Shown here: one piece after another, positions 1,241 to 64,000 of the stretch
Numbering within the stretch: position 1 is the first letter of the stretch
Layout: each line of letters starts with the position of its first letter
IMG/VR virus record: IMGVR_UViG_3300029288_000006
Coordinates: 1 to 64,000 of that record
Direction: 5' to 3' (one strand)
DNA: 64,000 nt
Origin: a virus
Taxonomy: Duplodnaviria > Caudoviricetes
The notes under the pieces: generated by a model
The model's database searches: none
Seen by the model: the letters and a program-made list of their open reading frames with translations, nothing else
What the model was told of the DNA's origin: nothing
Translations under genes and position numbers: made by a program

Positions 1241-1995
1241 TGAATTCAATTAAACTATGTGAATGTGGATGTGGACAACCAACAAAATTATCAACCAAAA
1301 CTGATAAATCAAATGGAAGAATTAAAGGACAACCCATGCATTTTATAAAAGGGCACGCTGCAAAATTACAAAAGATCAAACCCACTATTCTATATGAATC
1401 CCCAGTTTTATGTCAATGTGGATGCGGTGGGGAGGTATTGAAATCCAAACAAAGTGAATATACTAAGGGCTACAAAAAGGGAGAAGCAAGAAAATTTATA
1501 TCTGGACACAATTTAAAAACATATATTAAACCAATAAGTAAACGTATTAAAGAAAATATTATAATAAACAATAATACCAATTGTTGGGAATGGAATGGGT
1601 ATAAAGATAAAAACGGGTATGGAATAATAGGATATAAAAATAAAAAATGGTTTGTACACCGACTTATTTATTTACTTATCGGAGGAATTTTAACATCAGA
1701 AAAACCACATGTATTACATCATTGCGATAATCCTTCATGTTGTAACCCATTACATTTATTTTCTGGTAATGACGCTGATAACAATCGTGATATGATACAA
1801 AAAGGTAGGAAAGTAATTTTACGTGGAGAACGTGCTGGTAATGCTAAACTCACCGTAGAACAAGTCATAAATATAAAAACACTTCGTGAAGAAAAGAAAA
1901 TTCCGTATAAATTAATAGCAAATAAATATAATATAAGTGAACATCATGTATGGTTAATATGCAAAAAAATGACATGGAAACATTTATGGAAGTAG
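1240..1995 (+). CDS. HNH homing endonuclease
   Basis: CWEWNG..GYG, HRLIY, HHCDNPSCCNPLHL..N.RDM HNH core; two N-terminal CxCGCG..FIxGH repeats; C-terminal AKLT..IANKYNIS HTH. Confidence 0.9.
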   Translation: MNSIKLCECGCGQPTKLSTKTDKSNGRIKGQPMHFIKGHAAKLQKIKPTILYESPVLCQCGCGGEVLKSKQSEYTKGYKKGEARKFISGHNLKTYIKPISKRIKENIIINNNTNCWEWNGYKDKNGYGIIGYKNKKWFVHRLIYLLIGGILTSEKPHVLHHCDNPSCCNPLHLFSGNDADNNRDMIQKGRKVILRGERAGNAKLTVEQVINIKTLREEKKIPYKLIANKYNISEHHVWLICKKMTWKHLWK

Positions 1996-3705: not shown

Positions 3706-6486
3706 TTGGATCGTAAAACGTTAATAGCTGGTGGAGTTGCAGCGGTTATGACAATATTTGCCGGGCAAGAAGCACTCAAAATAAATGATCGTAACCAGGC
3801 AATCGCTGAGTTCCATCAAGATCAAATGACGGAAGTTTCCAAACGTAAAGTCGGAGAAGAAATAAAGTCAATGCGTACATCTAACTCCGAGACTTTTAAA
3901 TCCGACAGTGTAATAGTTACGAGACCTGATGGAGAAAAAGTAAAGGTAGCGCAATTTAATAGTCGTCTATATTCGGGTAATCATTTTTGGAAAGATGCGG
4001 ATGTTGATACTTTGCGTCCGCTCGATTTGACAGTGCGGGATATATCAGCGCTTGCCCGGATGAATCCGCTCCGGACACATGATAAGTATGTTGACGCGGG
4101 GCCGTACACAGCGACATGGATGAATGATAAACCCAATGATTATCGTATAGATGCTGGTGATATATATATAAAGTATAGGGCATTATTTGACGAACCTGGT
4201 ATTTCGGCGACGAAGGAGCCGACAGCGGGCGGTATTAAAGAGACAGTGATTCTTGCAGATTCAACAGTGGGGCATTCCCTTAAATGGATTTTTGAAACGG
4301 ATGGTTCCGTTGTTCCAGATGCTACCAATGGGTTTGATGTTCGCGCCAAGAATGGCAACGTTCCATTGAAAATTGAACCTCCTGTGGCATCGGACGCGCG
4401 CGAGAATCCGGTTATGGCGGTAGCGTCGGTATCCGGGGATACGCTCACGTTCCGGGTTACGGTTTTGCCGGGGCAGGAATATCCGATCACGGTTGATCCG
4501 AGTACAACGGTAGTTACAGCAACCAGCGTATATAATCCCTATAAAGTGAGCGATAGTTGGGCTGGCGCGAGAGATGCTACTACTGCCGGTGGGGATGGGT
4601 CATCCCCATATACTGTTGGGTCATCGGATTCATGGATGAGCGCAAGACTATTAATGCGATTCCCTCTTCCCGCGATGGCATCATGTAGCGCATGTACATT
4701 ATGGGCATATCAGAATGATATAGAAGGTGCTGGTGATAGTTTATATGTGTTTTCGGCTCATTCTTTCGGTTCAACGAATACATCGGCAGATTTTATAAAT
4801 TTCAATGGTTGGGTTTCCGGTAGTGCGCATAACGGAACAGCATTGTCGGCCCCGAAACCATTTCCGGCAGCTCCTGGACTTTTCTCTATGATATTTAATG
4901 CGGCAGGTATTGATAGTGTTATGATTTCTACAAACGATACATTACGTTTGGTATTAATAGATGCACGCGATTACAGGAATGTTGCACCCGAAGCAGGTGC
5001 GTCATTTGAAAATAGAATAAGCGGTTCTCCATATATAGGGTTTACCTATACTCTACCACCTCCCGTACTCGCAACAAATGTAACAGTAATGTCTATTGAT
5101 AAGAGTGATTCTCTTTTGGTTTCATGGGGCGGGACAACATCATCCAATGATAGTCTAATCTTGAGAACCTACCCAGATAGTGTATTCATCGCATATCTTG
5201 TTAAATCAAATACATCTCAAAGAATAGGTAATTTAAATCCCTATACAAAATATAAATGGTATATCAAAAGCAAAACAGGCGGGGGAGCATTATATTCTAA
5301 CGCAGATTCCGGTTATACTTTACAAACATTCAAGACCGAGAATTTCTCACTATCTAACACTGGATACGCGCAGAATAAATCAACTGCTGTGTATGACTCG
5401 GCGCGTGGGGAAACCCTTTCCGACTCCCTGTCAAGTGGTTCATCCTATCTCGGCCAATGGTGGTACAGTTCTTCAGTTAGATATGTTTTAAGACATTTCC
5501 AATCCGTTGCACTTCCTAAACTCACGAAGGTCAAGGCGGAATCTCTCTTTATCTATGGTACATCGGACAGTTCTTATACCGATTTCAATATTGAGGCACG
5601 CGCCGGAACATGGACAGGGGCGACAGCAGCGAATCTGAAATACAACCTGTTTGATGGCTGGCAAACTGCCATGACTGCGTATACTGGAACCCAACTCATC
5701 ACTCCATTCTCTACCGCCGGATTCACCACCGGGGCGACACTCAACAAATTGGTGTTCACGGCAGCCGGACGTGATAGTACATATAAACATGGAGTTGCAC
5801 CCGATACTCTTCGGTTTATGTTACTTTCCTCACGAGATATTTCTGCAACCGCACCAGTTCAGGGTGAATATATAGAGATGACGGAAGGTAGTTCTTATCT
5901 TCGACTCACCTATGCACCGCCGGACAGCGCGCCGAACGGATTAACTATTACATCCATATCGAAAGACAGCCTCCTCGCAACATGGACGGACAGGTCTTAC
6001 TCGGAGCGCGGATTCATCGTGGTGGATGCGTCTACCGGAAATATAATTGCCGGAACTGATACGACAAATCAAGATGTAACCAGTAAACGTGTTGGTGGAC
6101 TTTTGCCAAATACTTCATATACATGGAAAGTGAAAGCGGTAGGCGGTGGTGCAAACGGACTTTTATCTGCGGCTGACTCATGTTATACGCGGGCAGCGAC
6201 ACTCCCCAAACCTACAGTTACAATGGTTACGGACTCAACAAGAAAGGTTGTTATTGATACTTCAGGAATATATACGTCTTTTACCAGACTGGCAATTCAG
6301 GATAGTATAACAGGTAAATTTGTTGATTGGATTAGTGGCGCACTTGATACGCTTGCGGCAGGTACAGATTCAAGCAATGCAGATTATAGAACATATGCAA
6401 ATTGGAACGGAGCATTGGGAGATACCGTAAAATATGAGGTCGGTAAAACAAGTGCGTTTAGAACATGGACGCGAAGTGCACAATAA
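3706..6486 (+). CDS. Secreted-type multidomain fibre/adhesin protein (two Fn3 domains, two copies of a beta domain shared with 22348-23067)
   Basis: GGAGG then TTG start; signal-like MDRKTLIAGGVAAVMTIFAG|Q; GIKETVIL..YPITVDPS domain; Fn3 motifs GNLNPYTKYKWYI and GGLLPNTSYTWKVKA; 21 D-S/T-hydrophobic sequons. Confidence 0.65.
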   Translation: MDRKTLIAGGVAAVMTIFAGQEALKINDRNQAIAEFHQDQMTEVSKRKVGEEIKSMRTSNSETFKSDSVIVTRPDGEKVKVAQFNSRLYSGNHFWKDADVDTLRPLDLTVRDISALARMNPLRTHDKYVDAGPYTATWMNDKPNDYRIDAGDIYIKYRALFDEPGISATKEPTAGGIKETVILADSTVGHSLKWIFETDGSVVPDATNGFDVRAKNGNVPLKIEPPVASDARENPVMAVASVSGDTLTFRVTVLPGQEYPITVDPSTTVVTATSVYNPYKVSDSWAGARDATTAGGDGSSPYTVGSSDSWMSARLLMRFPLPAMASCSACTLWAYQNDIEGAGDSLYVFSAHSFGSTNTSADFINFNGWVSGSAHNGTALSAPKPFPAAPGLFSMIFNAAGIDSVMISTNDTLRLVLIDARDYRNVAPEAGASFENRISGSPYIGFTYTLPPPVLATNVTVMSIDKSDSLLVSWGGTTSSNDSLILRTYPDSVFIAYLVKSNTSQRIGNLNPYTKYKWYIKSKTGGGALYSNADSGYTLQTFKTENFSLSNTGYAQNKSTAVYDSARGETLSDSLSSGSSYLGQWWYSSSVRYVLRHFQSVALPKLTKVKAESLFIYGTSDSSYTDFNIEARAGTWTGATAANLKYNLFDGWQTAMTAYTGTQLITPFSTAGFTTGATLNKLVFTAAGRDSTYKHGVAPDTLRFMLLSSRDISATAPVQGEYIEMTEGSSYLRLTYAPPDSAPNGLTITSISKDSLLATWTDRSYSERGFIVVDASTGNIIAGTDTTNQDVTSKRVGGLLPNTSYTWKVKAVGGGANGLLSAADSCYTRAATLPKPTVTMVTDSTRKVVIDTSGIYTSFTRLAIQDSITGKFVDWISGALDTLAAGTDSSNADYRTYANWNGALGDTVKYEVGKTSAFRTWTRSAQ

Positions 6487-18300: not shown

Positions 18301-19259
18301 TTTATGGACAATCAAATAAACTCTATAGGGCGCAGGGGAAAACTGGTTTCGCTAAACTCGTAGCATCACAAGCGATGTTCTTAAAATATATTCATACTCA
18401 ATTATTAAACTTTGCAGAGAATGGGTATGAATTCAAGAATAAAAAGAATGCTATTTATATGATACTAGCTCCTGTTATTCTTGGTGGGTTAAGAGCTAGT
18501 CCTATCTGGGGTCCAATAAGTCCCATGATATATAAACTAATCCAATTCCTAACTGGAGACGATGATCCAGAAGAAGAGTTCTATCGTATGGTTGGCAATG
18601 AAATGGGTAAAGACCCAGAAAGATTTATGCGCGATGGTCTTATCGGCACATTTACTCCTGTTACCATTCGCAATTCTCTTGCATTCCAAATGCCTACTCC
18701 GATGTCGGGTATACCGTATTCACTTTATAAGGATGTTACGAATGCCGCAACACTGACTATTGAGGGTGACTATGGTAGGGCAATAGAACGCGCAAACATA
18801 CGCGCCGTATCTTCCGCGCTTCGCGCGCATCGCGAATATACGCAAGGTGCTACTACTCTTGGTGGGAAACCCTTCTGGTTAGGTACGGAACAAATAAAAC
18901 CCACCTTTACCCAAGCAATGATCATGGTATTTGGCGGGAATCCGGTAGAATATAGTTATAAGAAGGAACAATTATGGAAAGATCAAATTATACAACGTAG
19001 ATATACTACTAAACGTCATAAGATAAATAGTAAATTTATAAAAGCCGATAGTCCATCTGACTGGCAAAATGCTATGGATGAAGCATTAAAATATAATCAG
19101 ACCATTGTCAACCATAGACTGTTTGGGTTACCGTTTATTACAGATGCTTCAATTAAGAGTGCGCTTGATAATCCTCCAGATAAATTCCAACTCGGTAGAT
19201 ATTATAGACTTATGGAAGTTGGTGAAGAGGAAGAGGAAGAAACTAATGAGAATGAATAA
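9312..19259 (+). CDS. Giant (3315 aa) polyvalent internal virion protein with zincin metallopeptidase and ART-like domains
   Basis: GHELGH motif near 13990; YFHAT..SHFGT..PVYLAIENP..GYDGIIYKN..E near 15180-15720; YFPRMR and helical C-terminal region typical of phage large polyvalent proteins. Confidence 0.75.
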   Translation: MAVSYNSLFQSTNQLPQQEPPQSQIPQNITIPNGTIQTDLEPIAPVRRALAVRPQIQWEEELPEAQKPRAPVGQYFKEFGRGVAGTVLGSSPLYGGQLANIVQKELSEVGRKYKSDALMQSAQSVGYSVAATIPGIAAEILINKTPWGRYAKLGAAGVVGYVTLKSTYEQTLNNWYNMINDDWMKQYGRTMTHEEWNQAKDQFGLRGKAAKEALWEAGTEAAGYFIGSKLFPFSKGLAKTAIPKLVGGTVYEQAARTISPTVKEIVKPTLARKAITFGKRLGLSQISEQAEELIANKNQADVEYELGLTDKPTYMGTLKQQAAPVAISTLALNALFGGATKGVNLYTKHKINTTVEDNDVNAGNLGYKFINGLVTGTISPDEVRAEAEFYSEKPKIKQTILRTIDDASVLMEAKDDPNISTFINLTTLPYKFTELENKNDQKSIDSFVYELPFKPDELSAYAEFSKDTFPKVSRTLTKRANDIIETQKQAAKIKADEEGKFTEDIEGAETFPSGITLTQEGKDNLGNYIESRGKMQGKSKVLRTEIQNYAQNYSDWKLGILPNEPIPNAMLGGSINHVQKKVNDILASGSVVGEIKTPNINLTSPTNIQGQNIGEQAGEQTGEQLGQEVRSAIPNRVTFGRPKGTTGQITNVLDQMVQEKPITESISHKSVVQLNNELDTLDKQAQTLGYLNSRNLNVQEGIQLLNKNPNEYNDKDKELNNLITKHSNLWQQAVALPVKDAIKLNDDMGDAWVKIRFQNEVDAIHENELNDALDLAEYYILKNNPSKADIALNSIRWGRENEQGEFIPYDISEQQKNRNKELRNKIDSMNKTVKPKVISKVTPTEQPKYTPLSEEQTKIIQPSEILTSAKMSEHMVKVSQAIEPNSTIVKDNNVSIYEGTKEQVDGEEITQEEVKPAKIAIPKKVTAKITTPVISETKQVVTPKRKALFGKIPETKPIAEPVTTPVRAFGTSASKQVTTPTESEIKSQTPTNSMFKKPSEIIPSQTRLVKPLSEKLKGDDVYAWQAQSLGIRTVVTRLLDRGETVNAIVERRDINKKIKGRVDNKTLTEIVNGIDRLRKLGKVPKFKGTKLGLTEGKVKEDELIPLRVETKTEPATSTPTPTITPSSKQNMAVELSRDEYTEQLTKDKLIHFTIRKDEKSKRHSIYFDNGEIEIPMNDMLDKQLHTTFASEQSARNFLNKQSGEGTNADRYLKILDLQAESDRETKFAVEREHRDLITRLVNSGQTVSEKAISAYKDVDPALYHKWEENNNRINTEQSTTPVHVTTPDNPSTVDNVRIFKDKSDKTPETKQATELALNYSKLQQRLDGALAIWMNPTLRTSNIVELVSDVFNKGYTYDFNNKRIVSKDGKFAIQWKVNEHPEDKNSKTRNPNGITEFRKLTTEQNKKIDNIIKEIERDKTKQESGNKTQLNITNINTISESSITPILTDAKMVNEIDSINSAISDKFKSPSLGFSPSHIQVTLNRLSIDVGGKSDQLKMVKPRTLSDKIARIVANTFGDDVIFFEKSSDYAGLPFTGAYHRGFIFLESDNTNKIIRVIGHELGHKLRNRNPQLYNQLKNYLYSNERTEIDRLIKSLDDAVKNNPTIAPKWNKLNYDNKLEEIISDLVADRITNPNFWIGLSNYNSSTFNKLHNIILRILTRLSNLMNKQTLKTHFKDITSINNLIDSVMYNYAQEQRMNASVEKLDTIQTKINNIQSTADAFINKVPIVSNVTSIPNVSYLPQSILNRIINEDTNIDDISHMYDHDSHTIYLIANNLKTPYDIQRIILGASIKFDGIQGTFGNKMNGILRNITNLYKDNDQLSNRLSTIEKLGYLQSLKVSSPSSHYYHLSLELLNDYINDPINVYKFDILYDLRDVFNSLGELKYSNRDVLDIMSNLADYNTSMNRDYLIDTGLLDASHNSKLMVDTTISDSPYRTDALKQLPVKKLISQHGDPVGYFHATNRDFKVSDFYPFSHFGTEKAALKRMEKLGDYVLYTADRKIKTSKGEHVILGDSHTLKIWVEMGLSRNFILNNFKSEVISKPHLMPVYLAIENPIRIKDSRIGEFTPSYIAHELTRVGVMTPEQNTEFRFSIPLSFQPEYLKNIIKSKGYDGIIYKNNYEDIGKDSYIPMDNSQVISALVEVNPAGQTNTSSSWTVGIDRNLLDSKFMIDPKSYANNLESNLTDISINNIQPTDIEKLNRLQQAMEYFKEQVHFDTATIAINAQSPMQHRKFKSFDEATDIKDLSDMRKVPDAKSTHIPVVNREVSLEKEISLPFYYMGHSQHLAERYIYRAASIREDEGREYENIFMGKKFPENTTLLDKFIELKKTNKPEYEKLSNVIVHADINEKKYTEQDLRDMGFSEQAIKSWKDVRQILDNVLDTTIEMYKKKIADNQEMNLRDKRTILKRMGRKGLPVETDIEKLIKNLERMKGSYFPRMRDSGSWSVTMYNREQVTDEDGIVQNVDITNPLYKEYKSEKDARKAKDNFLKNGYDEAGTHYTFKDGEIKRTPERLAGYTVAGQTITNTNQFITQLLTKMDKVFMRDKIKSFDAIPDVKSSYNYQKKDGTLIPQLCIAILDEKDPGLYGYAFKSLGGAPYSNEEWFVDRSTNRVKKLSDWVLEGKNRKFVENNYQPTRVWHFNNPSHELRRNIVFAINKGRANEYVRHKLEFEYQLIQNEYELLMENTYQSSLIRRSGGTGNGVFIGYETDIPDVIRSYTKKIASGIATSHMAGNMISALHGTADASPYDFENIEDFIKLAQSRKIDPILHKNRYDRSLKYISDLLDRNYTMEKYFAMARALVAVKYMGLSVFSGGVNLTSLATSSPVVLNNYVKMPINQAPEYIKRACELYLIYKKNPDKLVPMGHPGLAALFQEMQYKDWNRSEMNEEASAVGIRSMKWIDSAIRGSLIFMRLTEEMNRLATMGASYLYMEDMYNKGYVALNSSSNAPDINVFTNLRRVTEYKKNIYNIKLVDNNETTGLHELYVDIAKETSDVANGVYGQSNKLYRAQGKTGFAKLVASQAMFLKYIHTQLLNFAENGYEFKNKKNAIYMILAPVILGGLRASPIWGPISPMIYKLIQFLTGDDDPEEEFYRMVGNEMGKDPERFMRDGLIGTFTPVTIRNSLAFQMPTPMSGIPYSLYKDVTNAATLTIEGDYGRAIERANIRAVSSALRAHREYTQGATTLGGKPFWLGTEQIKPTFTQAMIMVFGGNPVEYSYKKEQLWKDQIIQRRYTTKRHKINSKFIKADSPSDWQNAMDEALKYNQTIVNHRLFGLPFITDASIKSALDNPPDKFQLGRYYRLMEVGEEEEEETNENE

Positions 19260-19296
19260 AACAATCTCAACTAATTATATAATCTAATTTTAGTAT

Positions 19297-19337
19297 TTTA
19301 AATAATACTTGCTTTTTAATATATATTATAGTATATT
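19297..19337 (+). promoter_or_regulatory. sigma70-type promoter TTGCTT-N17-TATATT
   Basis: -35 at 19309-19314, -10 at 19332-19337; same upstream motif as 6503. Confidence 0.7.
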
Positions 19338-19374
19338 ATAGAGAACGCAGAATAATGGAAGGAGAATTGTTATT

Positions 19375-19791
19375 ATGAGATGGAAGATAAGGAATTTGAT
19401 AGTTCCGATTATATTTATTTTGCTTATAACTTATGCTTATTCACAACAAGTTTTTACCGTTGGGACTTATCATGGTACTGGTCCAACATTAACTATTTTT
19501 GGACGTGGTGCTCCATCAATAGTTTATCAAGTTTTACCGTATGGTATTGATAGTTTGTTTGTTAAATTGGAAGGTACTATGGATTCAGCAACTTATGGAT
19601 TCACAAATCTTTCCGCAAGTCAAAATGATAGTATAACATTTTATATTACTAAACGTGATACCATGTTCTTTATACGGTATGATGGTGAAATGCCAATGAC
19701 TAGAGTTCGCATTTGTCGTATTGTTCCCGATACGGTTTTTGCTACTTCTGATACTACTGTGAGGGTGAGGGGATATTATGAAGATAGATAA
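19375..19791 (+). CDS. Signal-peptide-bearing small beta-sandwich (decoration/spike-like) protein
   Basis: MRWKIRNLIVPIIFILLITYAYS|QQ; VKLEGTMD motif; 6 of 8 Asp residues lie in D-S/T-hydrophobic sequons. Confidence 0.6.
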   Translation: MRWKIRNLIVPIIFILLITYAYSQQVFTVGTYHGTGPTLTIFGRGAPSIVYQVLPYGIDSLFVKLEGTMDSATYGFTNLSASQNDSITFYITKRDTMFFIRYDGEMPMTRVRICRIVPDTVFATSDTTVRVRGYYEDR

Positions 19792-21196
19792 ATTCAAATC
19801 CAAACTCTTATTTACTCTCATTGGTACTATATGTTTAATATTTATTGTACCATTTATAAATTCCCAGGAATTTAAATATGGTCAACATGGGTATCATTTA
19901 TCATTTGAAGAGGCAACTAGAGATACTTTAACAGATATACATGAAGAATTAGAGTCGTTTGAAAGTGCTGCTACTGATACCCTAACTGATATTCATACTA
20001 GATTAAGAGCGTTTCAGCAAGCGACTGGCGATACTCTTACCGATATGCATGAATTAATTAAAATATTTGAAAAGGCTACTGGTGATACACTAACAAATAT
20101 ACATTTGGATTTACTTGCGCGTATATTAGCCGCGATGGATACAACCACTAATGTTCATGAAGCATTAAAAATATTTGAGAAAGCTACGGGAGATACTCTT
20201 AATGGTATGTCTATTATTCAGAGTTTGTTCCGTGATGCTACCGGTGATAGTCTGGTAGATATGTCTATTATACAAAGTGCCTTTAGGAAAGCTACCGGTG
20301 ATACATTAACTGGAATTCATCTTGATTTGCTAACAAGAGCATTGGCAAACAGGGATAGTATAGCGAATACACATTTGGATTTGTTGTCAAGAATATTAGC
20401 CGTTAGAGATACAACCAGTAATACACATCTTGATTTGCTCTTGAGAGTATTGGCCAATCGGGATACTACAAGTGGAGCACATTCTAATCTTCTATCTAAT
20501 ATTCTTTCTGGATTTTCAACAAACAATGATACATTGACAGCAATACATACTGATTTGTTATCACGTATATTGGCGGCAAGAGATTCGGTATCTAATACAC
20601 ATTTAGATTTGCTTCTTAGGGCATTGGCCAATAGAGATAGTATAACAAATACACATTCAAATATTTTGAGTTTACTCACAACTAGAATTAATGCCGCGCG
20701 CGATACTAGTTCAAACGCTCATTCTAATATTCTTAGTTTTGAACAAACATTAAAAGATACACTGACCAATATACATACCAATATAGAATCAATGTATCTT
20801 TGGGATGCTACTCGTGTTAAAATAGGAACTACTACAGAAGATTTGATGCAGGCTGCTAGTAGTTATGTTTTATTTACCGGTACGACTGCTGATGTTATTA
20901 TAGAAAATATCACACTACGCAATGCCGATGTTGATTGTTCTGATGATGCTACATTTACCGGACTATCTATTCAAACAAACGATACAACTCCGATTGTTTT
21001 CATTACACAGGCAAACGGAGTAAAGGCGAATCTTACAGGTGAAGCTCAATTGGCGTGGACTGGTTCTGCTATCATAAAATTGGGTACGGAAATACGACTT
21101 ACTATCTATGGTGGTGCTGCTGATGCTACATGCGCACCAGATATAATGGTAACATACAAATCAACCGGTACTGGTACTGGAACATTAGAGCCATAA
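19778..21196 (+). CDS. Signal-peptide-bearing coiled-coil fibre with 18-aa repeats and C-terminal beta head
   Basis: MKIDKFKSKLLFTLIGTICLIFIVPFINS|QE; 16 repeats each starting D-S/T-x; beta-rich C-terminus. Confidence 0.65.
   Translation: MKIDKFKSKLLFTLIGTICLIFIVPFINSQEFKYGQHGYHLSFEEATRDTLTDIHEELESFESAATDTLTDIHTRLRAFQQATGDTLTDMHELIKIFEKATGDTLTNIHLDLLARILAAMDTTTNVHEALKIFEKATGDTLNGMSIIQSLFRDATGDSLVDMSIIQSAFRKATGDTLTGIHLDLLTRALANRDSIANTHLDLLSRILAVRDTTSNTHLDLLLRVLANRDTTSGAHSNLLSNILSGFSTNNDTLTAIHTDLLSRILAARDSVSNTHLDLLLRALANRDSITNTHSNILSLLTTRINAARDTSSNAHSNILSFEQTLKDTLTNIHTNIESMYLWDATRVKIGTTTEDLMQAASSYVLFTGTTADVIIENITLRNADVDCSDDATFTGLSIQTNDTTPIVFITQANGVKANLTGEAQLAWTGSAIIKLGTEIRLTIYGGAADATCAPDIMVTYKSTGTGTGTLEP
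19922..20790 (+). repeat. Coding tandem repeat, 16 units of 18 aa (two of 22 aa), consensus D-T-L-T-N-x-H-L-D-L-L-x-R-x-L-A-x-R/G
   Basis: Visible directly in the translation. Confidence 0.9.
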
Positions 21197-21207
21197 GGAG
21201 GATGAGA

Positions 21208-22335
21208 ATGAAAATTATATATAGTTTAATATTATTGACTTTCCTCGTGGCATCTAATGGGTATTCAGATGTTATGAAGAATGGACAAATTGTAGGATTG
21301 GATTCAACCAATATTGCTAATACTGGTATTAAGGGTGGCAATTTAGTTAATCCATTACGAGCAACATTGGATATGTACATAACCGGGTTGATAAAACCAG
21401 ATTCCCTTTTACTCGGAAGCAATACTAGTTTTCGTAGTAGTGAATCGGAAATTATAGCATCTTCAGATACACTGCAAACTCTTGGGTTAAAACTCAAGGC
21501 ATTATCTAGCAATACAAATTCACCTATTGTACAGTTTATATCAAATACAACCGGTACACTTAAAGCTGGTTCAATTTATGGGGCATATGGAGCAGACCCA
21601 TATATTGTATTCGCCGCGCCGAATGATGCTGGAGCAGAAATCCCCGTATTCCATTTACATGACACATCAATTGCATTTGTTACAGATAACACTGTTGATA
21701 TAGGTGGGACTAGCGACAACAGACCCAAGGATATTAATATATCTGGACATTTTATTGGTTTGTCGGTTAAGGGTGATTCCCTGCGTATGGGTGCTGATAC
21801 TCAATTACATAGGGAAAGTGCAAATAAGATAGCAACTGACGATACTATTGAGGCTGCCTCTTTCCAAAGTTCAAGTGCTCTCAAATGGCAATTGGATTTA
21901 GATTCCTTCGGACTTGCCGCTCAGGATTCTGCTGCTGCTTATTCTGCATATACAGTTGGGCGAGATACTACCCAGACTATTACTCGTAATAGAAAATATA
22001 TTGATTTTACTCGTGGACCAAGTCCATCAATGAAAGCTATAACACTTAGTGATGTTATAGCAAACTTTCCAGTGCTGAATCCTGATTCATTGCTTGTGGA
22101 TGTGTACTCTCACTCGAATAGCGCGGACTCTATCGAGGTTTGTATACGAGTAAAATATCTAACTACCACAATATTTAATTCTGGCTGGATTGTGCCAAGC
22201 GCGGCAATGGCATGGGAACACAATGCATTTGTTCTGGCAACACCGTTCATAAAAGATCAGGAATATGAAGTTTTTGTTGATGTATATGGGTGCGCGGATA
22301 ATCGTCTGTTGATTTCCGGGTTACAATTCAAGTAA
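21208..22335 (+). CDS. Signal-peptide-bearing tail-fibre-like protein
   Basis: AAGGAGG at 21195-21201 supports the ATG at 21208; MKIIYSLILLTFLVASNGYS|D; fibre-type motifs DNTVDIGGTSDNRPKDI and DTQLHRESANKIATDD; 9 sequons. Confidence 0.65.
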   Translation: MKIIYSLILLTFLVASNGYSDVMKNGQIVGLDSTNIANTGIKGGNLVNPLRATLDMYITGLIKPDSLLLGSNTSFRSSESEIIASSDTLQTLGLKLKALSSNTNSPIVQFISNTTGTLKAGSIYGAYGADPYIVFAAPNDAGAEIPVFHLHDTSIAFVTDNTVDIGGTSDNRPKDINISGHFIGLSVKGDSLRMGADTQLHRESANKIATDDTIEAASFQSSSALKWQLDLDSFGLAAQDSAAAYSAYTVGRDTTQTITRNRKYIDFTRGPSPSMKAITLSDVIANFPVLNPDSLLVDVYSHSNSADSIEVCIRVKYLTTTIFNSGWIVPSAAMAWEHNAFVLATPFIKDQEYEVFVDVYGCADNRLLISGLQFK

Positions 22336-22347
22336 AGGAGCATGAGA

Positions 22348-23067
22348 ATGAAGAGACTTTTTATAGCATTCGCGCTCATGCTCCTATGCAGTACGTCGTG
22401 GGGCGATAACATAACCGTAACGGCACAATCGGCTTTATTCCTCAGTGCTAGTAGCGGAACGTATGTGGGAGCAAGGGACACTACCGAAACATCTTCGGCC
22501 CTATCTTCGGCTTACATGGCTATAGGACAGCGTTTACTGGGTGATGTTTATCAGACTATGCGTTCAACAGCACGTTTTGTCATTCCTGCCATGTCATCCG
22601 CTGAAGCCTGTACGTTATGGGCCTGGGGAAATTCCAATGACTCTGACACTGATTTTCAAGTTTATATTGTCGGTGCAAACTCGATGCGCCCGATTTACGG
22701 AAGAACAGACTATATCGAGTTCGATGGACGTGTGGCTGGAGGAGCGCATACCAGCACAATCCTTAATAATGCTTATTCTACTCTAACCGACTATACGATT
22801 GATGCATGGAACCCAATCATATTTAATGCTGCCGGGCTTGATTCACTGGCTGCCGCACAAGGCGATACACTCTACATCGCGATAATTTCAAAAGAAGATA
22901 CTGACAATTCTGCACCAACTGGTGACGAGTATATAGTTGTTAGCGGTATTAATGATTTGGGTGAGGAAGCATATCTATCCTTCACCTATAACGATCCAGT
23001 GGTTCCGATTCCTAAACATGGATCATACACATTGCCTGGAATATATGGACAGTCCATAAAAAAATAG
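22348..23067 (+). CDS. Signal-peptide-bearing protein, single copy of the domain duplicated in 3706-6486
   Basis: MKRLFIAFALMLLCSTSWG|D; GARDTT, PAMSSAEACTLWAW and IFNAAGLDSL match GARDAT, PAMASCSACTLWAY and IFNAAGIDSV. Confidence 0.7.
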   Translation: MKRLFIAFALMLLCSTSWGDNITVTAQSALFLSASSGTYVGARDTTETSSALSSAYMAIGQRLLGDVYQTMRSTARFVIPAMSSAEACTLWAWGNSNDSDTDFQVYIVGANSMRPIYGRTDYIEFDGRVAGGAHTSTILNNAYSTLTDYTIDAWNPIIFNAAGLDSLAAAQGDTLYIAIISKEDTDNSAPTGDEYIVVSGINDLGEEAYLSFTYNDPVVPIPKHGSYTLPGIYGQSIKK

Positions 23068-23790: not shown

Positions 23791-24411
23791 ATGAAAGTTG
23801 CGATCAATTTTTTTATAGCAGTAATTACTTCGCTTATTATTTTTCTGATGTTTGTATGGGTAAAACCCTCATGTTCTGAAGATTTGTCTACTAGTGGTAA
23901 AATTATTAATGGTGCTTTACATCCTGCATGGATTCAAGACCGCGCAATAAAATATGGTTTATTGACTTCATTCTGTATAGCTCAGGGAACAACTGGATTA
24001 GTAGAGAGCGCAAAATATGGTGGACATTATCTTTCTAATTCCGCAGATAATTATCATATTTACCGTGGTATACAGAATATTGCGTGGATAGGTACTGGAT
24101 GGTTTACATATGCGGCAGTACAGGAGAAGAATAAACCGTGGTGGGCAAAGACAAGTAGAATTATTGGGGCGGCGTGTTATGCTAGAAATTGTAATGAACT
24201 GGTCTATAGATGGAATGTTTCTGGCAGTCCTTTTAATTATTCTGATGCCTATACCTCTAATAAGAAAGCGTTAGTACTGTTTAAATGGGATGGTACTAAG
24301 AATAAGTTTGTGGATTTTTATGTATCTGGAACTGGTAAACAGGGTATGATTATAGATGCATCATTTTTTATTATGGGTTTTGTGCTAAATCGTATAGGTG
24401 ATATAAGATAA
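23791..24411 (+). CDS. Membrane or secreted hypothetical protein
   Basis: N-terminal hydrophobic segment plus further hydrophobic helices; no sequons. Confidence 0.55.
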   Translation: MKVAINFFIAVITSLIIFLMFVWVKPSCSEDLSTSGKIINGALHPAWIQDRAIKYGLLTSFCIAQGTTGLVESAKYGGHYLSNSADNYHIYRGIQNIAWIGTGWFTYAAVQEKNKPWWAKTSRIIGAACYARNCNELVYRWNVSGSPFNYSDAYTSNKKALVLFKWDGTKNKFVDFYVSGTGKQGMIIDASFFIMGFVLNRIGDIR

Positions 24412-24439
24412 ATAGTAAGATAAATAATAAGATAAATAA
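24404..24439 (+). repeat. 12-bp tandem repeat x3 (TAAGATAAATAR)
   Basis: Three consecutive copies over the stop codon of 23791-24411. Confidence 0.8.
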
Positions 24440-24482
24440 TATAATTCAAACCCTTTTCAGTCTATAGAGTGGAGAAAATAAT

Positions 24483-24875
24483 ATGCATAGCGAAGCACAG
24501 GCGTTTCAGGTATGGTGGTCATTGCACCCCACTCTAGCCGATGTTCTTTTATTGGTTTCATTTATTGGATTTACTACTGTTTGTTGGATCGTAATAGTTA
24601 TGAATAAAAAGGAACGTGCGAAACAAATAGATGAGATTAAAACATTGGTATTGGAAAATATTAAAGAGATTAAAGATAGTTTTACACAACATATCAAGAC
24701 AATGAAAGAAGTTGTAGAAAAGTTACAGAATGAAAAACAAATGATTCAAGAGCATTTAGTTAGACATGAAAAAATTGCTGAAGATATAATGAGGATTTGT
24801 AAAACCATAGATGATCACGAGATGAGAGTTAGGGATTTGGAATGGGATGGCAAGGAAAGACGTAGGGGTGAATAA
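24483..24875 (+). CDS. Single-TM coiled-coil protein (holin-like), lysis cassette
   Basis: One TM helix followed by a coiled coil; directly upstream of the endolysin. Confidence 0.5.
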   Translation: MHSEAQAFQVWWSLHPTLADVLLLVSFIGFTTVCWIVIVMNKKERAKQIDEIKTLVLENIKEIKDSFTQHIKTMKEVVEKLQNEKQMIQEHLVRHEKIAEDIMRICKTIDDHEMRVRDLEWDGKERRRGE

Positions 24876-25249
24876 TGAAAGATTACTTTACATTAGGGGA
24901 AAAAACCTGTCATTGCGGTTGTGGATTAAATAAGGTTGATGATAACCCCGACTTTCTCAACGCCCTAAATCATGCCCGTGAATTATATGGTAAACCAATG
25001 AATGCGGAATCAATGACACGATGCGAAAAGCGCAATAAGGAAATTGGAGGTGCTCCCAAAAGTGCGCACATAGATGGTCGTGCGGTAGATATATATTGCG
25101 ATAACATGGTAGAACGTGCAGAAATGTTATGGGCTTTATATGAAGCTGGATTTAGGCGATTTGAATTAAAAAAAACTGATCTTCATGCTGATATGAAAAA
25201 AGATGCTCCACAAATAGTAGCTATTAAAACCAATCATGGTATTGTATAA
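24875..25249 (+). CDS. Endolysin, peptidase M15 family
   Basis: CHCGCG, S.TRC..RN..IGGA..SAH..GRAVDI and LHAD zinc-binding motifs. Confidence 0.9.
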   Translation: MKDYFTLGEKTCHCGCGLNKVDDNPDFLNALNHARELYGKPMNAESMTRCEKRNKEIGGAPKSAHIDGRAVDIYCDNMVERAEMLWALYEAGFRRFELKKTDLHADMKKDAPQIVAIKTNHGIV

Positions 25250-25284
25250 TTATTGTATGTTTAAAAATTACTCTGGAGGTTTGT

Positions 25285-25626
25285 ATGAAACGTATATTCT
25301 GGATTTTTGTGCTTGTTATGGTATGTTTCTCCGATTTGGCGTTCGCTGGAATTAAAGATAGCATCATTGGGATACTTGGTGGCGTGTGGCAAACAGCGTT
25401 GGCGTTTGTTATAACTGCTATTATCGGACTTGCGGCGGTAGCAAAATATACACCGTGGTTGTCTAAACTTTTGATTGTTGCGGGCGCACTTCTTACCACT
25501 ACGGGGTTGGCTATTGAGGATAGCAAGGTAACAAAAGATGAACTCAAAAACATTATTGAAGATGTGAAGGATTTAAAAGATGCCGCACTCTCAAAAATAG
25601 GGAATAGCGAAATCGAACATGGCTAA
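25285..25626 (+). CDS. Putative holin / membrane protein
   Basis: Signal-like N-terminus plus two TM segments; follows the endolysin. Confidence 0.5.
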   Translation: MKRIFWIFVLVMVCFSDLAFAGIKDSIIGILGGVWQTALAFVITAIIGLAAVAKYTPWLSKLLIVAGALLTTTGLAIEDSKVTKDELKNIIEDVKDLKDAALSKIGNSEIEHG

Positions 25627-25834
25627 TAATAAAACAAATGAACGCCCGTGGTATTTAACTACACGCGCGCTTGGTATTGGTTTTACCGTAACGGGTATAG
25701 CTATGTGGTTTGTTCCCGTGACACATCCTATTGCAGAGAAGTTCATAACTGCGGGCCTTGCGTTGATAGCGGGTGGGCAATATGCATCCTCTACGCGGAA
25801 AGCGTATGAACCAAAAGTTATAAACAAGAAATAA
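25619..25834 (+). CDS. Putative holin (2 TM)
   Basis: PWYLTTR motif, two TM helices, basic tail. Confidence 0.55.
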   Translation: MANNKTNERPWYLTTRALGIGFTVTGIAMWFVPVTHPIAEKFITAGLALIAGGQYASSTRKAYEPKVINKK

Positions 25835-43882: not shown

Positions 43883-44067
43883 GGCGAATTTACCTTAACT
43901 TTATTTGTAATCATATTTAATCTCTGTTTGCTTCTCCATTCAGGAGGTGAACTTTTATGAACAAAATAAATACAGTTACCAGATTCACTCGGAACTATTT
44001 TATGATCACACTCATGTTCTAAATCACAACTAGAACATGAAAATTTAAGTTTAACTACATTACTCAT
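43879..44067 (-). CDS. Small Cys-rich protein
   Basis: CSSC..C..C. Confidence 0.5.
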   Translation of the reverse strand: MSNVVKLKFSCSSCDLEHECDHKIVPSESGNCIYFVHKSSPPEWRSKQRLNMITNKVKVNSP

Positions 44068-44360
44068 AAGATAATTTCTCCCACTTCATTATTATATTCT
44101 TCTATAGTTTTAATCACTTTATAAATATAATTAGCTGATACATGGAACTGCCGGTCATCCATATCAGTGTCAGAACCCCTGACAAATAGTTCATCACTAT
44201 CTTCACATATATCGGGAAATGAAAAACTACATAAGGAAACTCCATTAGATGCATGAAAATAATCATTGCCCCGGTAGAAATCACAGCATCTTGAATCCTG
44301 ATGAGTAATAAAAAAAAGTAATACATCACAATCAACTTGTATAATCTTATATTTTATCAT
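44064..44360 (-). CDS. Tandem paralogue family, copy 8
   Basis: MIKYKIIQ..ITHQ..FHASNG..S..FP..LFVRG..IEEYN. Confidence 0.85.
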   Translation of the reverse strand: MIKYKIIQVDCDVLLFFITHQDSRCCDFYRGNDYFHASNGVSLCSFSFPDICEDSDELFVRGSDTDMDDRQFHVSANYIYKVIKTIEEYNNEVGEIIL

Positions 44361-44746
44361 AATCCCACGCGATACTTTATATGTTCATTATACTCATCAA
44401 TCGCACTAACTATTTTATAAATATAAGAAATGGATATTGTCATAATACAATTATCCATTCCCTTATTCGATCCCATTGTATATAACGTATTATATTCTAT
44501 ATCAAAATCTGGATGTGAACAACTAATCAATTGCAATCCATTAGACGCTGTAAAGCGATCATGAAAAATATTAGACTTACAATAAAAACTAGACCCCCTA
44601 AAATCTTGATGGGTAATAACAAAAATAATTTTATCTTTACTATCTATATCGTGTTTCTGACGAGTAGAAAGAGCATCAACATTCCGCTCCAATAAACCCA
44701 CAATATACTGATCCTTATATGATTGGAATATCCTATATCTAATCAT
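44357..44746 (-). CDS. Tandem paralogue family, copy 7 (N-terminal insertion)
   Basis: MIRYRIFQ..ITHQ..FTASNG..IDEYN. Confidence 0.85.
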   Translation of the reverse strand: MIRYRIFQSYKDQYIVGLLERNVDALSTRQKHDIDSKDKIIFVITHQDFRGSSFYCKSNIFHDRFTASNGLQLISCSHPDFDIEYNTLYTMGSNKGMDNCIMTISISYIYKIVSAIDEYNEHIKYRVGL

Positions 44747-45294: not shown

Positions 45295-45297
45295 ATA

Positions 45298-46177: not shown

Positions 46178-46180
46178 ATG

Positions 46181-62617: not shown

Positions 62618-64000
62618 TTATTTTATTTCCGCTAATCCTATGACATATGGTTTGTTATCCCATGAATATAATTTTATAGGTGTAAGTTTTTTGTTAGATA
62701 AATAATTAGATTGTACTCTATGTTTTAGAAATGAACCATTTAGATGAGTGTAGACTATCTGACCGTCAATGATATTAAATGTATCAGCTATATAGAGTGG
62801 GTGTTTGATTGATAGGATTGAGTCTAGATTAGTATTATGTTTATAATTATTTAGAACATCATATGAGCACAATCCAAAGGTATCTATGATTTTAAAGTCT
62901 TTAGCGGCATATCCAATTGCGCCAAGGTCACCAGACAGAACCCAACGAGATTTGTCACCGTGATCTTGTAATAATTTACCAGTTTCTAATCTAGCTTCCT
63001 GGACCGGTGATAAATTAGCAGCGTTGGAATACATCCATTTAATTGAATTAACATTCTGATATAGCAGTATGGGTAATACTATTAGAATAACTTTCCAGTT
63101 TTTAAATACCGGTGCTCCACAAATTAACATGAGCGGTAGCATGGGAACACTATATCTAACCCAATCTGAACGCGGTCCGAGCAGGCAGGCGACTATAGAA
63201 ATAATTATATACACTCCCAACCATCTAACTCTTATGTCCATAATCATTCCAATAATACACATAACAGGAACAATAAGGGCATATCTTACCCATGTGCTGA
63301 TAATTTGCATAGGATTGGATTCATAATAATTAGTGAGTTGTTTGAATTGTACGGCATGTGAGATCAATGTACCATAATATAGATACTTAAATAAATAGAA
63401 TAGAGAAATAATACCGATAACTATTAATATATCTAATATCTTACGATCATGCACTAACCATAATGATAGAATTAATATACCCTCTGGACGAGTTAATGCT
63501 ATTAAAATAACCAACCACATTGAGAGTTCAGATTTTTTATATAACATTGAGTATGCGAATGCACAGAGTAGGGCTGTAAAAAATATTGTATCCATTCCCA
63601 ATATTGCCCACCCAGAAATGAATCCATGCAAAGATGATATTAAAGCAAGTAGTATGGAGATTATTATATTCCCGGAAAGTTTTAACGCACACAAATATAC
63701 GAAACCCGCGATTAACCCCAAGGACAGCATATTAAATAAGAAGGATACCATCGCAAGATTGTGTATACCAACGCGATAGAATAATGCAAGAATAACAGTA
63801 TATAGGAATGATGATGCCGAATCTACCCGCTCGTTTAGATTGTAAACTAACTGACCGTGCTCAGCTAAGTTTATGGCATATCTCATGGAAATTGCGGCGT
63901 CATCATAACAATTTCTATATAATGTATTGGTATTATTATAAATAATTACAACTGTTGTTATGGATATTACAGCAAGTGCAAGCGCAATAATTATGTTTTT
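62618..64000 (-). CDS. GT-C-type polytopic membrane glycosyltransferase (5' end outside the window)
   Basis: Frame open to the window edge: TM helix, then YDDAAISMRYAINL..G.LVYN..ERV...SS.LY; LTRPEG; RY..P; DLGAIGY..IIDTFGL; many TM segments. Confidence 0.75.
   Translation of the reverse strand, partial: KNIIIALALAVISITTVVIIYNNTNTLYRNCYDDAAISMRYAINLAEHGQLVYNLNERVDSASSFLYTVILALFYRVGIHNLAMVSFLFNMLSLGLIAGFVYLCALKLSGNIIISILLALISSLHGFISGWAILGMDTIFFTALLCAFAYSMLYKKSELSMWLVILIALTRPEGILILSLWLVHDRKILDILIVIGIISLFYLFKYLYYGTLISHAVQFKQLTNYYESNPMQIISTWVRYALIVPVMCIIGMIMDIRVRWLGVYIIISIVACLLGPRSDWVRYSVPMLPLMLICGAPVFKNWKVILIVLPILLYQNVNSIKWMYSNAANLSPVQEARLETGKLLQDHGDKSRWVLSGDLGAIGYAAKDFKIIDTFGLCSYDVLNNYKHNTNLDSILSIKHPLYIADTFNIIDGQIVYTHLNGSFLKHRVQSNYLSNKKLTPIKLYSWDNKPYVIGLAEIK

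Follow-up and report, generated by a model that had tools for sequence, protein, structure and literature searches.

Sec-coupled protein O-mannosylation, carried out by fungal PMT enzymes and by the Rv1002c-type Pmt of Actinobacteria, depends on GT-C glycosyltransferases with an acidic motif in the first loop, which take their sugar from a polyprenyl phosphate and modify Ser/Thr residues as proteins emerge from the Sec translocon, on substrates without a strict tripeptide motif. Serotype conversion by phage gtrABC involves GtrC, a polytopic GT-C that uses a lipid-linked sugar at the outer face of the inner membrane, and to our knowledge the phage GT-C enzymes described so far (GtrC) modify O-antigen. 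Virion glycosylation was reportedly described by Freeman et al. in 2023 (cited in PMC11256854) for mycobacteriophages of the Che8/Corndog/Myrna type, where the transferases are soluble and cytoplasmic and modify capsid and tail-tube proteins ahead of assembly. T5 Llp, lambda Lom and Cor are precedents for exported phage proteins whose genes adjoin those of the tail, and signal-anchor-release (SAR) domains are found in phage endolysins and T4 RI. Finally, the general O-glycosylation system of Bacteroidota modifies exported proteins only, at the acceptor D-S/T-A/I/L/V/M/T, a motif that has been called unique to Bacteroidota (PMC12871550).

Here we analysed a window of 64,000 nucleotides from the 92-kb genome of an uncultured phage, in which four adjoining late genes (A-D, 19375-23067), arranged head to tail on the plus strand, and a fifth gene in the tail module encode proteins with export-type N-termini. 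The features discussed below are the following:

3706..6486, plus strand: 926-aa protein of the tail module, with a TTG start and 21 motif sites against 5.5 expected
19260..19374, no strand: intergenic gap 5' of gene A, 115 nt, AT-rich, separating the gene for a 3315-aa giant protein from A
19375..19791, plus strand: gene A, 138 aa, predicted exported small protein
19778..21196, plus strand: gene B, 472 aa, predicted exported repeat protein
19922..20790, plus strand: 18-residue repeat array within gene B, with site spacings of 18 (ten times), 22, 18 and 18
21208..22335, plus strand: gene C, 375 aa, predicted exported fibre-type protein
22342..23067, plus strand: gene D, 241 aa, predicted exported stand-alone CBM96-like beta-sandwich
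23791..25834, plus strand: lysis cassette, downstream of A-D
62618..64000, minus strand: AftB-like GT-C membrane glycosyltransferase, 465 aa (ORF to 64015, past the window)

The preliminary description had given A-D a promoter of their own, which our results do not bear out: a consensus scan of the gap (19260..19374) found no plus-strand promoter, and promoter-like sites in this region were rarer than in its shuffles. A Shine-Dalgarno (SD) site (GGAAGGAG) precedes the ATG of gene A, and the unit continues gaplessly into small genes and then into the lysis cassette, which encodes a 206-aa N-terminally anchored protein, a 130-aa i-spanin-like protein with a TM segment plus coiled coil, a 124-aa Peptidase_M15_3 endolysin and two small membrane proteins. 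The single-domain endolysin together with the spanin-like gene suggests a diderm host.

Signal peptides were called with a simple home-made n/h/c-region rule. This rule flags only ten ORFs of at least 60 aa in the whole genome, A-D and the 926-aa protein being among them. All four proteins of the cassette have the textbook form anticipated for them, with a K/R n-region, an h-region of 14-18 residues and small residues at -3/-1, and with predicted cuts between AYS and QQ in A, INS and QE in B, GYS and D in C, and SWG and D in D. Signal-like N-termini of different sequence are kept in homologues 43-65% identical and persist across homologues from phages of 36-55% GC, and one homologue of D lacks the signal and begins opposite residue 24 of D, three residues beyond the predicted cut. 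A-D look Sec-exported, and we infer that they are indeed exported. In the 926-aa protein, as in its large homologues, a positively charged stub comes first, then a weakly hydrophobic helix rich in Gly/Ala/Ser/Thr, then acidic residues; Gly, Ala, Ser and Thr make up 56% of the Gly/Ala-rich helix in the 926-aa protein and on average 48% in 47 homologues. Stub, helix and acidic residues resemble those of SAR domains, but the cargo here is an FN3/CBM protein of 700-1600 aa and not a muralytic enzyme or an antiholin.

The D-[ST]-[AILVMT] tripeptide occurs 6 times in A (taking up 6 of its 8 Asp), 16 times in B, 9 times in C and 3 times in D, while signal-less controls hold 9 sites in 3315 aa (9.6 expected), 3 in 406 aa and 5 in 485 aa; our recount was identical to the earlier one for every protein. 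Against 2000 composition-preserving shuffles, the enrichment proposed for all four proteins stood for A (6 vs 0.64), B (16 vs 4.2) and C (9 vs 2.3; each p<=0.0005), corresponding to 4-10x, and was lost for D, which is not enriched because its 3 sites compare with 1.4 in the shuffles (p=0.17). Sites in B are not independent events, since 15 of the 16 fall one per repeat unit. Taken together, the five exported-type proteins contain the motif at 4.0x expectation, and 60 large homologues of the 926-aa protein hold 932 sites against 339 expected (2.75x). The control patterns (E/N/G-[ST]-hydrophobic, D-[ST]-non-hydrophobic, mirror and reversed) stayed near 1x (0.55-1.13). At the third position the order is L > T > V ~ S > I > A, with Ser slightly favoured over Thr, which is like the published acceptor preference of Bacteroidota (PMC12871550).

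In gene A, each of the six sites begins a hydrophobic-alternating (strand-like) stretch; the only homologue of A, 89% identical, occupies the syntenic position in L004, and A showed no detectable relationship to the small signal-peptide family seen in L003/L006/L017/L019. In gene B a helical repeat, 18 residues long in most units, recurs 15 times; every unit carries a single D-[ST]-[LTIV] site and, as a rule, one His. A beta-rich domain follows at the C-terminus of B, and its homologues in L004 (526 aa, 18 sites) and L003 (364 aa, 10 sites) both keep the signal. The ORF of gene C is open from 21130, but the start at 21208 agrees with homologues, with which it shares a conserved core (..HLHDTSIAFVTDNTVDIGG..RPKDI..); in their alignment the Asp is invariant in 8 of 9 sequons vs 9 of 19 positions elsewhere. 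The model of C is confident for residues 224-375 only, a CBM-like beta-sandwich matching CBM61/CBM4/CBM6 (Z 11-12). D is a CBM-like beta-sandwich over its whole length (AF2 model, pLDDT 89.9), belongs to a family of 2327 representatives and has paralogues in two domains of the 926-aa protein (BLASTP, E 1e-20 and 1e-9), which combines two D-type CBM-like domains with at least one FN3. Both D and these two domains resemble CBM96 modules, matching the chondroitin-sulfate CBM 8wab (Foldseek, E 5.5e-7 for D) and the alginate CBM 7vbo, and, like lectin tips of tail fibres, they find a CBM96 protein as well as tail or tail-fibre proteins of phages in BFVD. Identity to all these matches, those of C included, is only about 10-17%, and signal peptides are absent from the phage examples known. 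As regards the appendage-like bodies, the repeat of B was borne out, D and C 224-375 are CBM-like beta-sandwiches, and the N-terminal 'fibre' part of C gave a model of pLDDT <50. In general, A-D look like proteins of virion-appendage or lectin type.

Within the D-domain family, members with a hydrophobic N-terminus contain 920 sites against 352 expected and those without one 142 against 104 (MWU p 2e-6). Nine cytoplasmic homologues carry the motif at 0.42x, and in neck or tail-tip modules the signal-less homologues hold 1 site where 1.2 are expected and none where 1.3 are; small signal-peptide D-domain proteins reach only ~1.5x, and the L095 homologue has a signal and zero sites. By these comparisons the motif appears to follow export and not fold. 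Being specific, conserved in position and absent from signal-less homologues, the tripeptide behaves like a selected acceptor site, in agreement with the preliminary description.

A candidate enzyme is encoded by the phage itself, ~40 kb from the cassette, on the opposite strand and in the early/middle region. The GT-C has ~9 TM helices by hydropathy and a DD motif in its first outward loop, and its family profile matches mycobacterial AftB (9dlf, E 7e-8) across this motif. In the Atlas it scores 0.99 against clusters of bacterial membrane proteins, one of which is 13% PMT_2, and the Pfam PMT models do not match. It shares with PMT the membrane GT-C type with an acidic first-loop motif and, as we propose, Sec-exported Ser/Thr substrates, but it is nearest AftB, not GT39, and phage-encoded. 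As in mycobacteriophages, a phage glycosyltransferase would O-glycosylate structural-type proteins of its own phage, except that in our case the proposed substrates are marked by export signals and the candidate enzyme is a GT-C predicted to face the periplasm. Homologues 45-63% identical are located in phage contigs, inside head/tail modules and beside signal-peptide, motif-rich proteins: the order is capsid, 157, SP312, 148, SP122, GT-C and connector in L017, and tape measure, 132, GT-C and D-domain proteins, including a 1412-aa SAR form with 26 sites vs 10.1, in L025, with similar arrangements in L019 and L016. Like GtrC, the enzyme is a polytopic phage-encoded GT-C; unlike the gtrABC case, its homologues lie in late head/tail operons and not in lysogeny modules, no GT2/GtrB or GtrA donor-synthesis or flippase gene was found among the scanned proteins of at least 200 aa, and the likely target would be protein and not O-antigen. 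All four GT-C-bearing viral records (this phage, G001, G002 and G004) encode a SAR-tagged D-domain protein with the motif at roughly 2.6-4x, whereas none of five records at least 80% complete and lacking the GT-C has an export-tagged, motif-rich D-domain protein (motif 0-1.4x; D-domain proteins without export signal in 4 of 5). In this small set of four versus five records, some incomplete and not phylogenetically independent of one another, motif enrichment appears to track the phage-encoded GT-C.

We tentatively favour, at somewhat less than an even chance, a module, encoded by the phage, that would glycosylate exported lectin/fibre proteins in the periplasm. A-D and the 926-aa protein, of the kind normally incorporated in phage tails and necks, would be transferred to the periplasm late in infection by their Sec signals, cleavable signal peptides in A-D and a SAR-like Gly/Ala-rich signal-anchor helix in the 926-aa protein. 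There the Ser/Thr of the dense D-S/T-hydrophobic sites would most likely be O-glycosylated, probably by the phage's own AftB-like GT-C with a host polyprenyl-phosphate sugar as donor, and the CBM-like glycoproteins would be released once the adjoining lysis cassette fires, to end on the virion surface or on the cell envelope and debris.

Rather unlikely, in our view, is that the exported proteins are unglycosylated lectin-like envelope proteins that bind glycans of the host surface or periplasm, which could block the receptor against superinfection or prevent progeny from sticking to debris, while the GT-C separately remodels the receptor as in seroconversion and the motif serves folding, stability or metal binding within the periplasm. 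The CBM-like folds of C, D and the 926-aa protein, the adjoining lysis genes and the precedents of exported phage proteins and O-antigen-modifying GT-C enzymes are consistent with it, and the GT-C could indeed modify host envelope glycans, given that AftB, its solved relative, glycosylates polysaccharide and not protein. However, enrichment specific to Asp-Ser/Thr-hydrophobic, with N/E/G variants and mirror patterns at ~1x, is hard to fit to strand capping or metal binding, same-fold signal-less homologues lack the motif, the GT-C of other phages is set in late head/tail operons, away from lysogeny genes, and no gtrA or gtrB turned up among the scanned proteins of at least 200 aa.

We consider it improbable that the host belongs to Bacteroidota and that its general O-glycosylation system coats the phage appendages, the agency assumed in the preliminary description. 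In its favour, the two share a three-residue motif that is restricted to Asp and has been called unique to Bacteroidota, a slight Ser preference, third residues L/T/V/S/I/A and a link to exported proteins, where dense sites imply heavy modification (PMC12871550); moreover, one homologue is annotated from a MAG of Latescibacterota (FCB group), and an Atlas cluster resembling the GT-C is most frequent in Bacteroidota. Yet SD motifs precede 55% of the genes of this phage (background 7%) and 25-73% in relatives, while they are at background in Bacteroides phage B40-8 (9% vs 9%) and Flavobacterium phage 11b (5% vs 7%); crAss001 has 26% vs 13%. SD sequences go unrecognised by Bacteroidia ribosomes, and Chlorobia mRNAs are also mostly SD-less (PMC9976891), so this strong use in the phage and all its relatives makes the host system an unlikely agent. 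Furthermore, among cultured phages the closest relatives by capsid and portal have Alphaproteobacteria (Rhizobium, Roseobacter and Pelagibacter) as hosts, neither the 926-aa protein nor the GT-C has a match among 50,697 GenBank phages, Bacteroidota phages included, and a host-only mechanism does not predict enrichment that tracks a phage GT-C.

It is very improbable that the hydrophobic N-termini are virion anchors of cytoplasmically assembled fibres or decoration proteins, or segments inserted into the host membrane at infection: the genes do lie in head/neck/tail modules (the capsid-adaptor interval in L003/L006, after the tape measure in L014/L025) and the Gly/Ala-rich helices of the large proteins look like fusion or anchor segments, but A-D have textbook signals that diverge freely while retaining signal form, some homologues do without the signal and begin at the predicted mature end, and an anchor does not explain motif enrichment that follows the hydrophobic N-terminus.

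The only known users of this acceptor motif are Bacteroidota, so a version outside them, as a phage-encoded periplasmic module would be, is without precedent. As far as genome comparison can tell, these results suggest that exported proteins of the phage are glycosylated by the phage itself, outside the cytoplasm.

The parent record of the window is a single-contig virus of 92,274 bp, the window being its first 64 kb, and the late block lies on the + strand from ~76 kb through the record end to 25.8 kb, with terminase, an SU10-type portal, a T7/P22-like capsid and adaptors. The proteins studied here are encoded in this block, four of them in consecutive genes (A to D, the cassette):

3706-6486 (+), 926-aa protein, tail region, late block
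9312-19259 (+), 3315-aa giant protein gene, tail region, upstream of gene A
19375-19791 (+), gene A
19778-21196 (+), gene B
21208-22335 (+), gene C
22342-23067 (+), gene D

Downstream of gene D there are four small ORFs and then a lysis cassette, which includes a Peptidase_M15_3 endolysin and a spanin-like protein with a TM segment plus coiled coil. Directly upstream of the lysis genes, a 206-aa protein (23791-24411, +) free of D-[ST]-[AILVMT] sites has an N-terminal hydrophobic stretch of 21 residues and then KPSCSED; it may be anchored in the membrane or be an atypical lipoprotein. A separate promoter had been proposed for A to D, but the 115-nt gap before gene A contains no + strand consensus site, and promoter-like sites are fewer in the region than in shuffled versions of it. 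A to D gave no family match in PHROGs, Pfam or NCBIfam, and searches against 50,697 GenBank phages returned zero matches, both by blastn with the A-D region and by tblastn with the 926-aa protein and with GT-C, the candidate membrane glycosyltransferase of this phage. Several selfish elements are scattered over the genome (window 1240-1995, +, and 27169-29907, -; record 64000-64536, -, and 70240-73290, +), namely two paralogous HNH endonuclease genes, one of them wedged amid tail genes, and inteins in a helicase (Hint/LAGLIDADG) and, together with HNH, in a ribonucleotide reductase. Eight tandem paralogues of ~100 aa each, all beginning MI[KR]Y, occupy 44064-46477 (-) and match each other by BLASTP with E as low as 1e-19-1e-20. 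A Mom-family protein (PF25680, E 8e-12) at positions 65263-65850 (-) of the record (1263-1850 of contig L001) suggests that the phage may modify its DNA bases.

The Sec/SPI-like signal peptides attributed to A-D in the preliminary description were recovered with a home-made n/h/c-region rule (positive n-region, uncharged h-region of 7-15+ residues, small residues at -3/-1). The rule flags all four proteins, with h-regions of 14-18 residues (KD 1.9-2.7), among 10 of the 127 ORFs of the genome that pass, and it also flags the 926-aa protein, giving five signal-bearing proteins. Homologues in five contigs (L003, L004, L006, L008 and L009) retain signal peptides of dissimilar sequence, signal-less D homologues begin at ..ATNDGY.., and the alignment of one of these, P0050, starts at D residue 24. 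The signal, kept despite divergence or cleanly absent, thus appears to be a separable add-on. From its TTG start, the 926-aa protein presents a charged stub and then the helix TLIAGGVAAVMTIFAG, 56% of which is Gly, Ala, Ser or Thr; these residues make up on average 48% of the N-terminal helix in large homologues vs 32% in the classic signal peptides of small ones, and we classify this N-terminus as SAR-like, that is, as a predicted TM helix rich in Gly/Ala/Ser/Thr. Reading D as a lipoprotein (LMLLC|S) was ruled out because the Cys is not conserved among homologues. Judged by these N-termini, A-D and the 926-aa protein are very probably exported.

The set predicted to be exported is also where the D-[ST]-[AILVMT] motif concentrates. 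The counts first reported (A 6, B 16, C 9, D 3) are exact, and comparison with 2000 shuffles (expected 0.64, 4.2, 2.3 and 1.4, respectively) sustains the enrichment for A, B and C (p<=0.0005) and not for D (p=0.17), which behaves like many small D-type homologues in being barely enriched. The 926-aa protein, with 21 sites vs 5.5 expected, is the sole other ORF as significant as A-C, and the 3315-aa giant has 9 sites vs 9.6. Site density reaches 2.1 per 100 aa in the rule-flagged set vs 0.36 in the remaining genome. Leaving aside the promoter and the enrichment of D, then, the original observation is real. When the five proteins are pooled, D-[ST]-hydrophobic stands at 4.0x expectation and the control patterns (E-, N- and G-[ST]-hydrophobic, D-[AG]- and D-[NQ]-hydrophobic, D-[ST]-non-hydrophobic, reversed and mirror) at 0.44-1.10. 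The sites of B are spread singly over the units of a repeat that is mostly 18 residues long. Among three C homologues (65% and 48% identity), 8 of the 9 Asp residues of C that belong to the motif are invariant vs 9 of its 19 other Asp residues, and homologous positions of the D family read D-S-L or D-T-L in certain lineages and A-A or S-T-L in others, so the fold does not need Asp there. Given its specificity and the conservation of its Asp in C, the motif looks like a selected site, and we consider it somewhat more probable than the contrary that this site is one of glycosylation.

Close homologues of C and D are few and all metagenomic; they occur in the same cassette type and have signal peptides in every case. 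The cassette of L004 is syntenic with ours and is the only one with relatives of A; L003 and L006 place theirs between capsid and SU10 adaptor, L008 after a 4587-aa giant, and L009, a siphovirus-like contig binned with an Omnitrophica MAG, ahead of head-tail connectors and directly 3' of sugar-nucleotide and GT4 genes. The first 7705 positions of L009 contain sugar-nucleotide epimerases, methyltransferases and the GT4 immediately 5' of three signal-peptide proteins. Many cassette homologues are motif-enriched (e.g. 18 vs 5.4 and 7 vs 1.05). IMG/VR scans with C, as single sequence or alignment, found zero relatives, and the annotation of a Rhizobium phage relative has no comparable cassette. 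Homology of A to a small signal-peptide family beside GT-C in L017 and L019 was rejected (hhalign probability 0.7%).

A profile of the D-domain, which is also present in the 926-aa protein, retrieved 2327 representative proteins in three forms: stand-alone proteins of ~240 aa with classic signal peptides, stand-alone signal-free proteins beginning at the predicted mature end, and FN3-containing proteins of 700-1600 aa like the 926-aa protein, most of which start with a Gly/Ala-rich, SAR signal-anchor-like helix. Sixty large homologues combine all the traits of the 926-aa protein, namely SAR-like helix, two CBM96-like domains, FN3 and motif enrichment. Sites number 920 vs 352 expected in family members whose N-terminus is hydrophobic and 142 vs 104 in the others (p 2e-6); nine cytoplasmic stand-alone forms have sites at 0.42x, and signal-less members in neck and tail-tip modules (L067, L068) show no enrichment. 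By these counts, the motif goes with the export signal in this family. As in L009, a further glycosylation gene neighbours a D-domain protein in L068, where the tail module that holds a signal-less member also includes a cytoplasmic GT2 (3827-5101).

Structure prediction gave for D a beta-sandwich (pLDDT 89.9) whose closest solved folds are a chondroitin-sulfate CBM (8wab, E 5.5e-7, TM 0.65 by target) and an alginate CBM (7vbo, E 5.5e-5). Among viral models (BFVD) it matches a CBM96 protein (E 1.6e-7) and also tail proteins and tail fibres, and we assign the model to the CBM96-like beta-sandwiches. Two domains of the 926-aa protein are CBM96-like and paralogous to gene D, and it also contains FN3. 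In C, the C-terminal 150 residues are predicted as a CBM-type sandwich (Z 11-12 to CBM61, CBM4 and CBM6), the monomer prediction fails for residues 5-224, with pLDDT below 50 over the putative shaft (22-223), and the N-terminal two thirds are conserved; fibre shafts often fail in monomer predictions. Comparison of C with the Atlas yielded C1q/CBM tail proteins as leads, with scores of only 0.83-0.84. C homologues exchange N- and C-terminal parts, resembling in this respect receptor-binding proteins, which likewise swap parts. Given the predicted folds of D and C and the part swapping of C, the earlier label of virion-type lectin/fibre proteins is a fair description of these bodies.

The candidate enzyme, GT-C, is encoded at 62618-64015 (-), past the window end at 64000 and far from the A-D cassette. 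Its 465 residues comprise ~9 hydrophobic 19-mers in residues 8-313 and then a soluble C-terminal domain of ~150 aa, with a YDD right after TM1 that is near-invariant among 18 homologues and aligned with the DD of AftB. The single sequence found no match in Pfam, NCBIfam or PDB and zero relatives in an IMG/VR scan; the profile of 18 homologues matched AftB (9dlf) with E 7e-8 over profile positions 12-229, spanning the DD motif. By TM count, DD motif and similarity alike, the protein is predicted to be an AftB-like glycosyltransferase of GT-C fold. By its Atlas features it groups with clusters of bacterial membrane proteins, one of which is partly PMT_2. AftB-type enzymes act on polysaccharides. 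Bacterial GT-C homologues (~35% identity) sit in polysaccharide loci among neighbours without motif richness, and homologues of 45-63% identity are found in phage contigs, several inside structural operons. L017 and L018 share the order capsid, 157 aa, signal-peptide 312 aa (5 sites vs 1.4), 148 aa (5 vs 1.3), signal-peptide 122 aa (5 vs 0.6), GT-C and head-tail connector. L025 has tape measure, 132 aa, GT-C and a 951-aa D-domain protein, with a 1412-aa SAR-type D-domain protein (26 sites vs 10.1) farther along; in L019, small terminase, GT-C and large terminase are followed by three signal-peptide proteins (largest 13 vs 4.9), and L016 has GT-C ahead of terminase and two signal-peptide proteins directly 3' of capsid. 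It is from this genomic association, and nothing else, that we infer a protein acceptor. GT-C appears to be split into two ORFs in two phage contigs (L025 7926-10111, L022 6538-8959), the halves in L025 flanking a 276-aa signal-bearing ORF; an insertion, a frameshift or a genuinely two-part enzyme could each account for this. A scan of the 20 largest non-structural proteins found neither a GtrA flippase nor a GT2 family protein of the kind of GtrB, the bactoprenol glucosyltransferase that would make the donor.

Whole records point in the same direction. Among five IMG/VR records with GT-C, three (100%, 74% and 66% complete) have SAR-tagged D-domain proteins with 2.6-3.5x sites, and the two without such proteins are 78% and 38% complete. 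Eleven IMG/VR records have D-domain proteins without GT-C; in the five of these with a completeness of 80% or more, the D-domain proteins show no enrichment (0-1.4x), four of the five lacking an export signal. Counting this genome and the three records with both GT-C and SAR-tagged D-domain proteins, the tally is 4/4 with GT-C vs 0/5 without, in a small sample uncorrected for relatedness.

The preliminary description had assigned the modification to a Bacteroidota host and its O-glycosylation system. In favor of this, the phage motif is identical to the acceptor motif of that system, which is held to be unique to the phylum and whose transferase is undiscovered (2025 review, PMC12871550). Translation signals argue against it. 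SD motifs (GGAG/GAGG/AGGA 4-20 nt upstream of ORFs of at least 100 aa) precede 55% of ORFs here vs 7% background, with a G peak of 55% at -11, and 25-73% in all relatives and all GT-C phage contigs; a Rhizobium phage gives 44%. The values are 9% vs 9% background for Bacteroides phage B40-8 and 5% vs 7% for Flavobacterium phage 11b, with crAss001 (1-50000) intermediate at 26% vs 13% (G peak 0.38 at -10). The SD is unrecognised by Bacteroidia ribosomes, and most Chlorobia mRNAs also lack it (PMC9976891). The cultured phages nearest in capsid and portal speak against this host as well, since they infect Rhizobium, Roseobacter, Pelagibacter and Puniceispirillum. From its sequence, then, the phage is unlikely to infect Bacteroidota, and the explanation by a host system is probably wrong. 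Two homologue contigs have MAG labels (Omnitrophica and Latescibacterota), which may reflect binning, and one relative comes from wastewater or river metagenomes. A GT-C profile search of genome contigs recovered two distant bacterial matches only, in an Aquabacterium MAG and an Acidobacteriaceae MAG (32-34% identity), which are no host clue.

If the sites are glycosylated, the phage's own GT-C has an even or slightly better chance of being the enzyme, and the most likely course would be as follows. Late transcripts would yield A-D and the 926-aa protein, Sec would carry them to the periplasm, and signal peptidase would free A-D while a weak anchor would keep the 926-aa protein tethered there. 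GT-C, its active-site loop facing the periplasm, would transfer sugar from a host polyprenyl-phosphate donor to Ser/Thr of D-S/T-hydrophobic sites, and the adjacent holin, endolysin and spanin genes would release all products. As to their destination, cassette, D-family or GT-C neighbourhoods lie in head, neck or tail modules in eight contigs (L003, L006, L009, L014, L016, L017, L025 and L068), which is indirect support for a place in the virion; that the proteins end up on virions seems to us doubtful, though possible. Less likely still is the complete scheme, in which tailed phages of SD-using, probably diderm, uncultured hosts would glycosylate these sites with a periplasmic AftB-like GT-C of their own and the glycoproteins would join finished virions at lysis, coating the particles with glycans.

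Folding and assembly of tailed-phage structural proteins are thought to be cytoplasmic. The nearest mechanistic analogue of the proposed module is Sec-coupled O-mannosylation by GT-C enzymes (PMT). Mycobacteriophage virion glycosylation is the nearest phage analogue, but is cytoplasmic, as is, to our knowledge, all known phage virion glycosylation; gtrABC seroconversion shares the enzyme class and differs in partners and gene context. Our literature search found no account of Sec-exported tail-fibre-type proteins or motif-directed glycosylation in phages, and the large D-type family (2327 representative clusters) is nameless in Pfam, PHROGs and NCBIfam. Taken as sequence evidence, these results point to an undescribed phage module that joins three elements, namely export, a motif of glycosylation type and a GT-C enzyme. 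In many uncultured phages, proteins of fibre/lectin type bear export signals and a dense, specific motif, and a GT-C predicted to face the periplasm is encoded as well, frequently within one late operon with them. Should this link prove functional, it would be a new route for modifying the phage particle or the envelope, with consequences for host range, immune and defence evasion and phage engineering, and motif-directed O-glycosylation would extend beyond Bacteroidota. The GT-C family would then be the first concrete, testable candidate for the type of transferase that reads this motif in Bacteroidota, where the enzyme is as yet undiscovered (PMC12871550).
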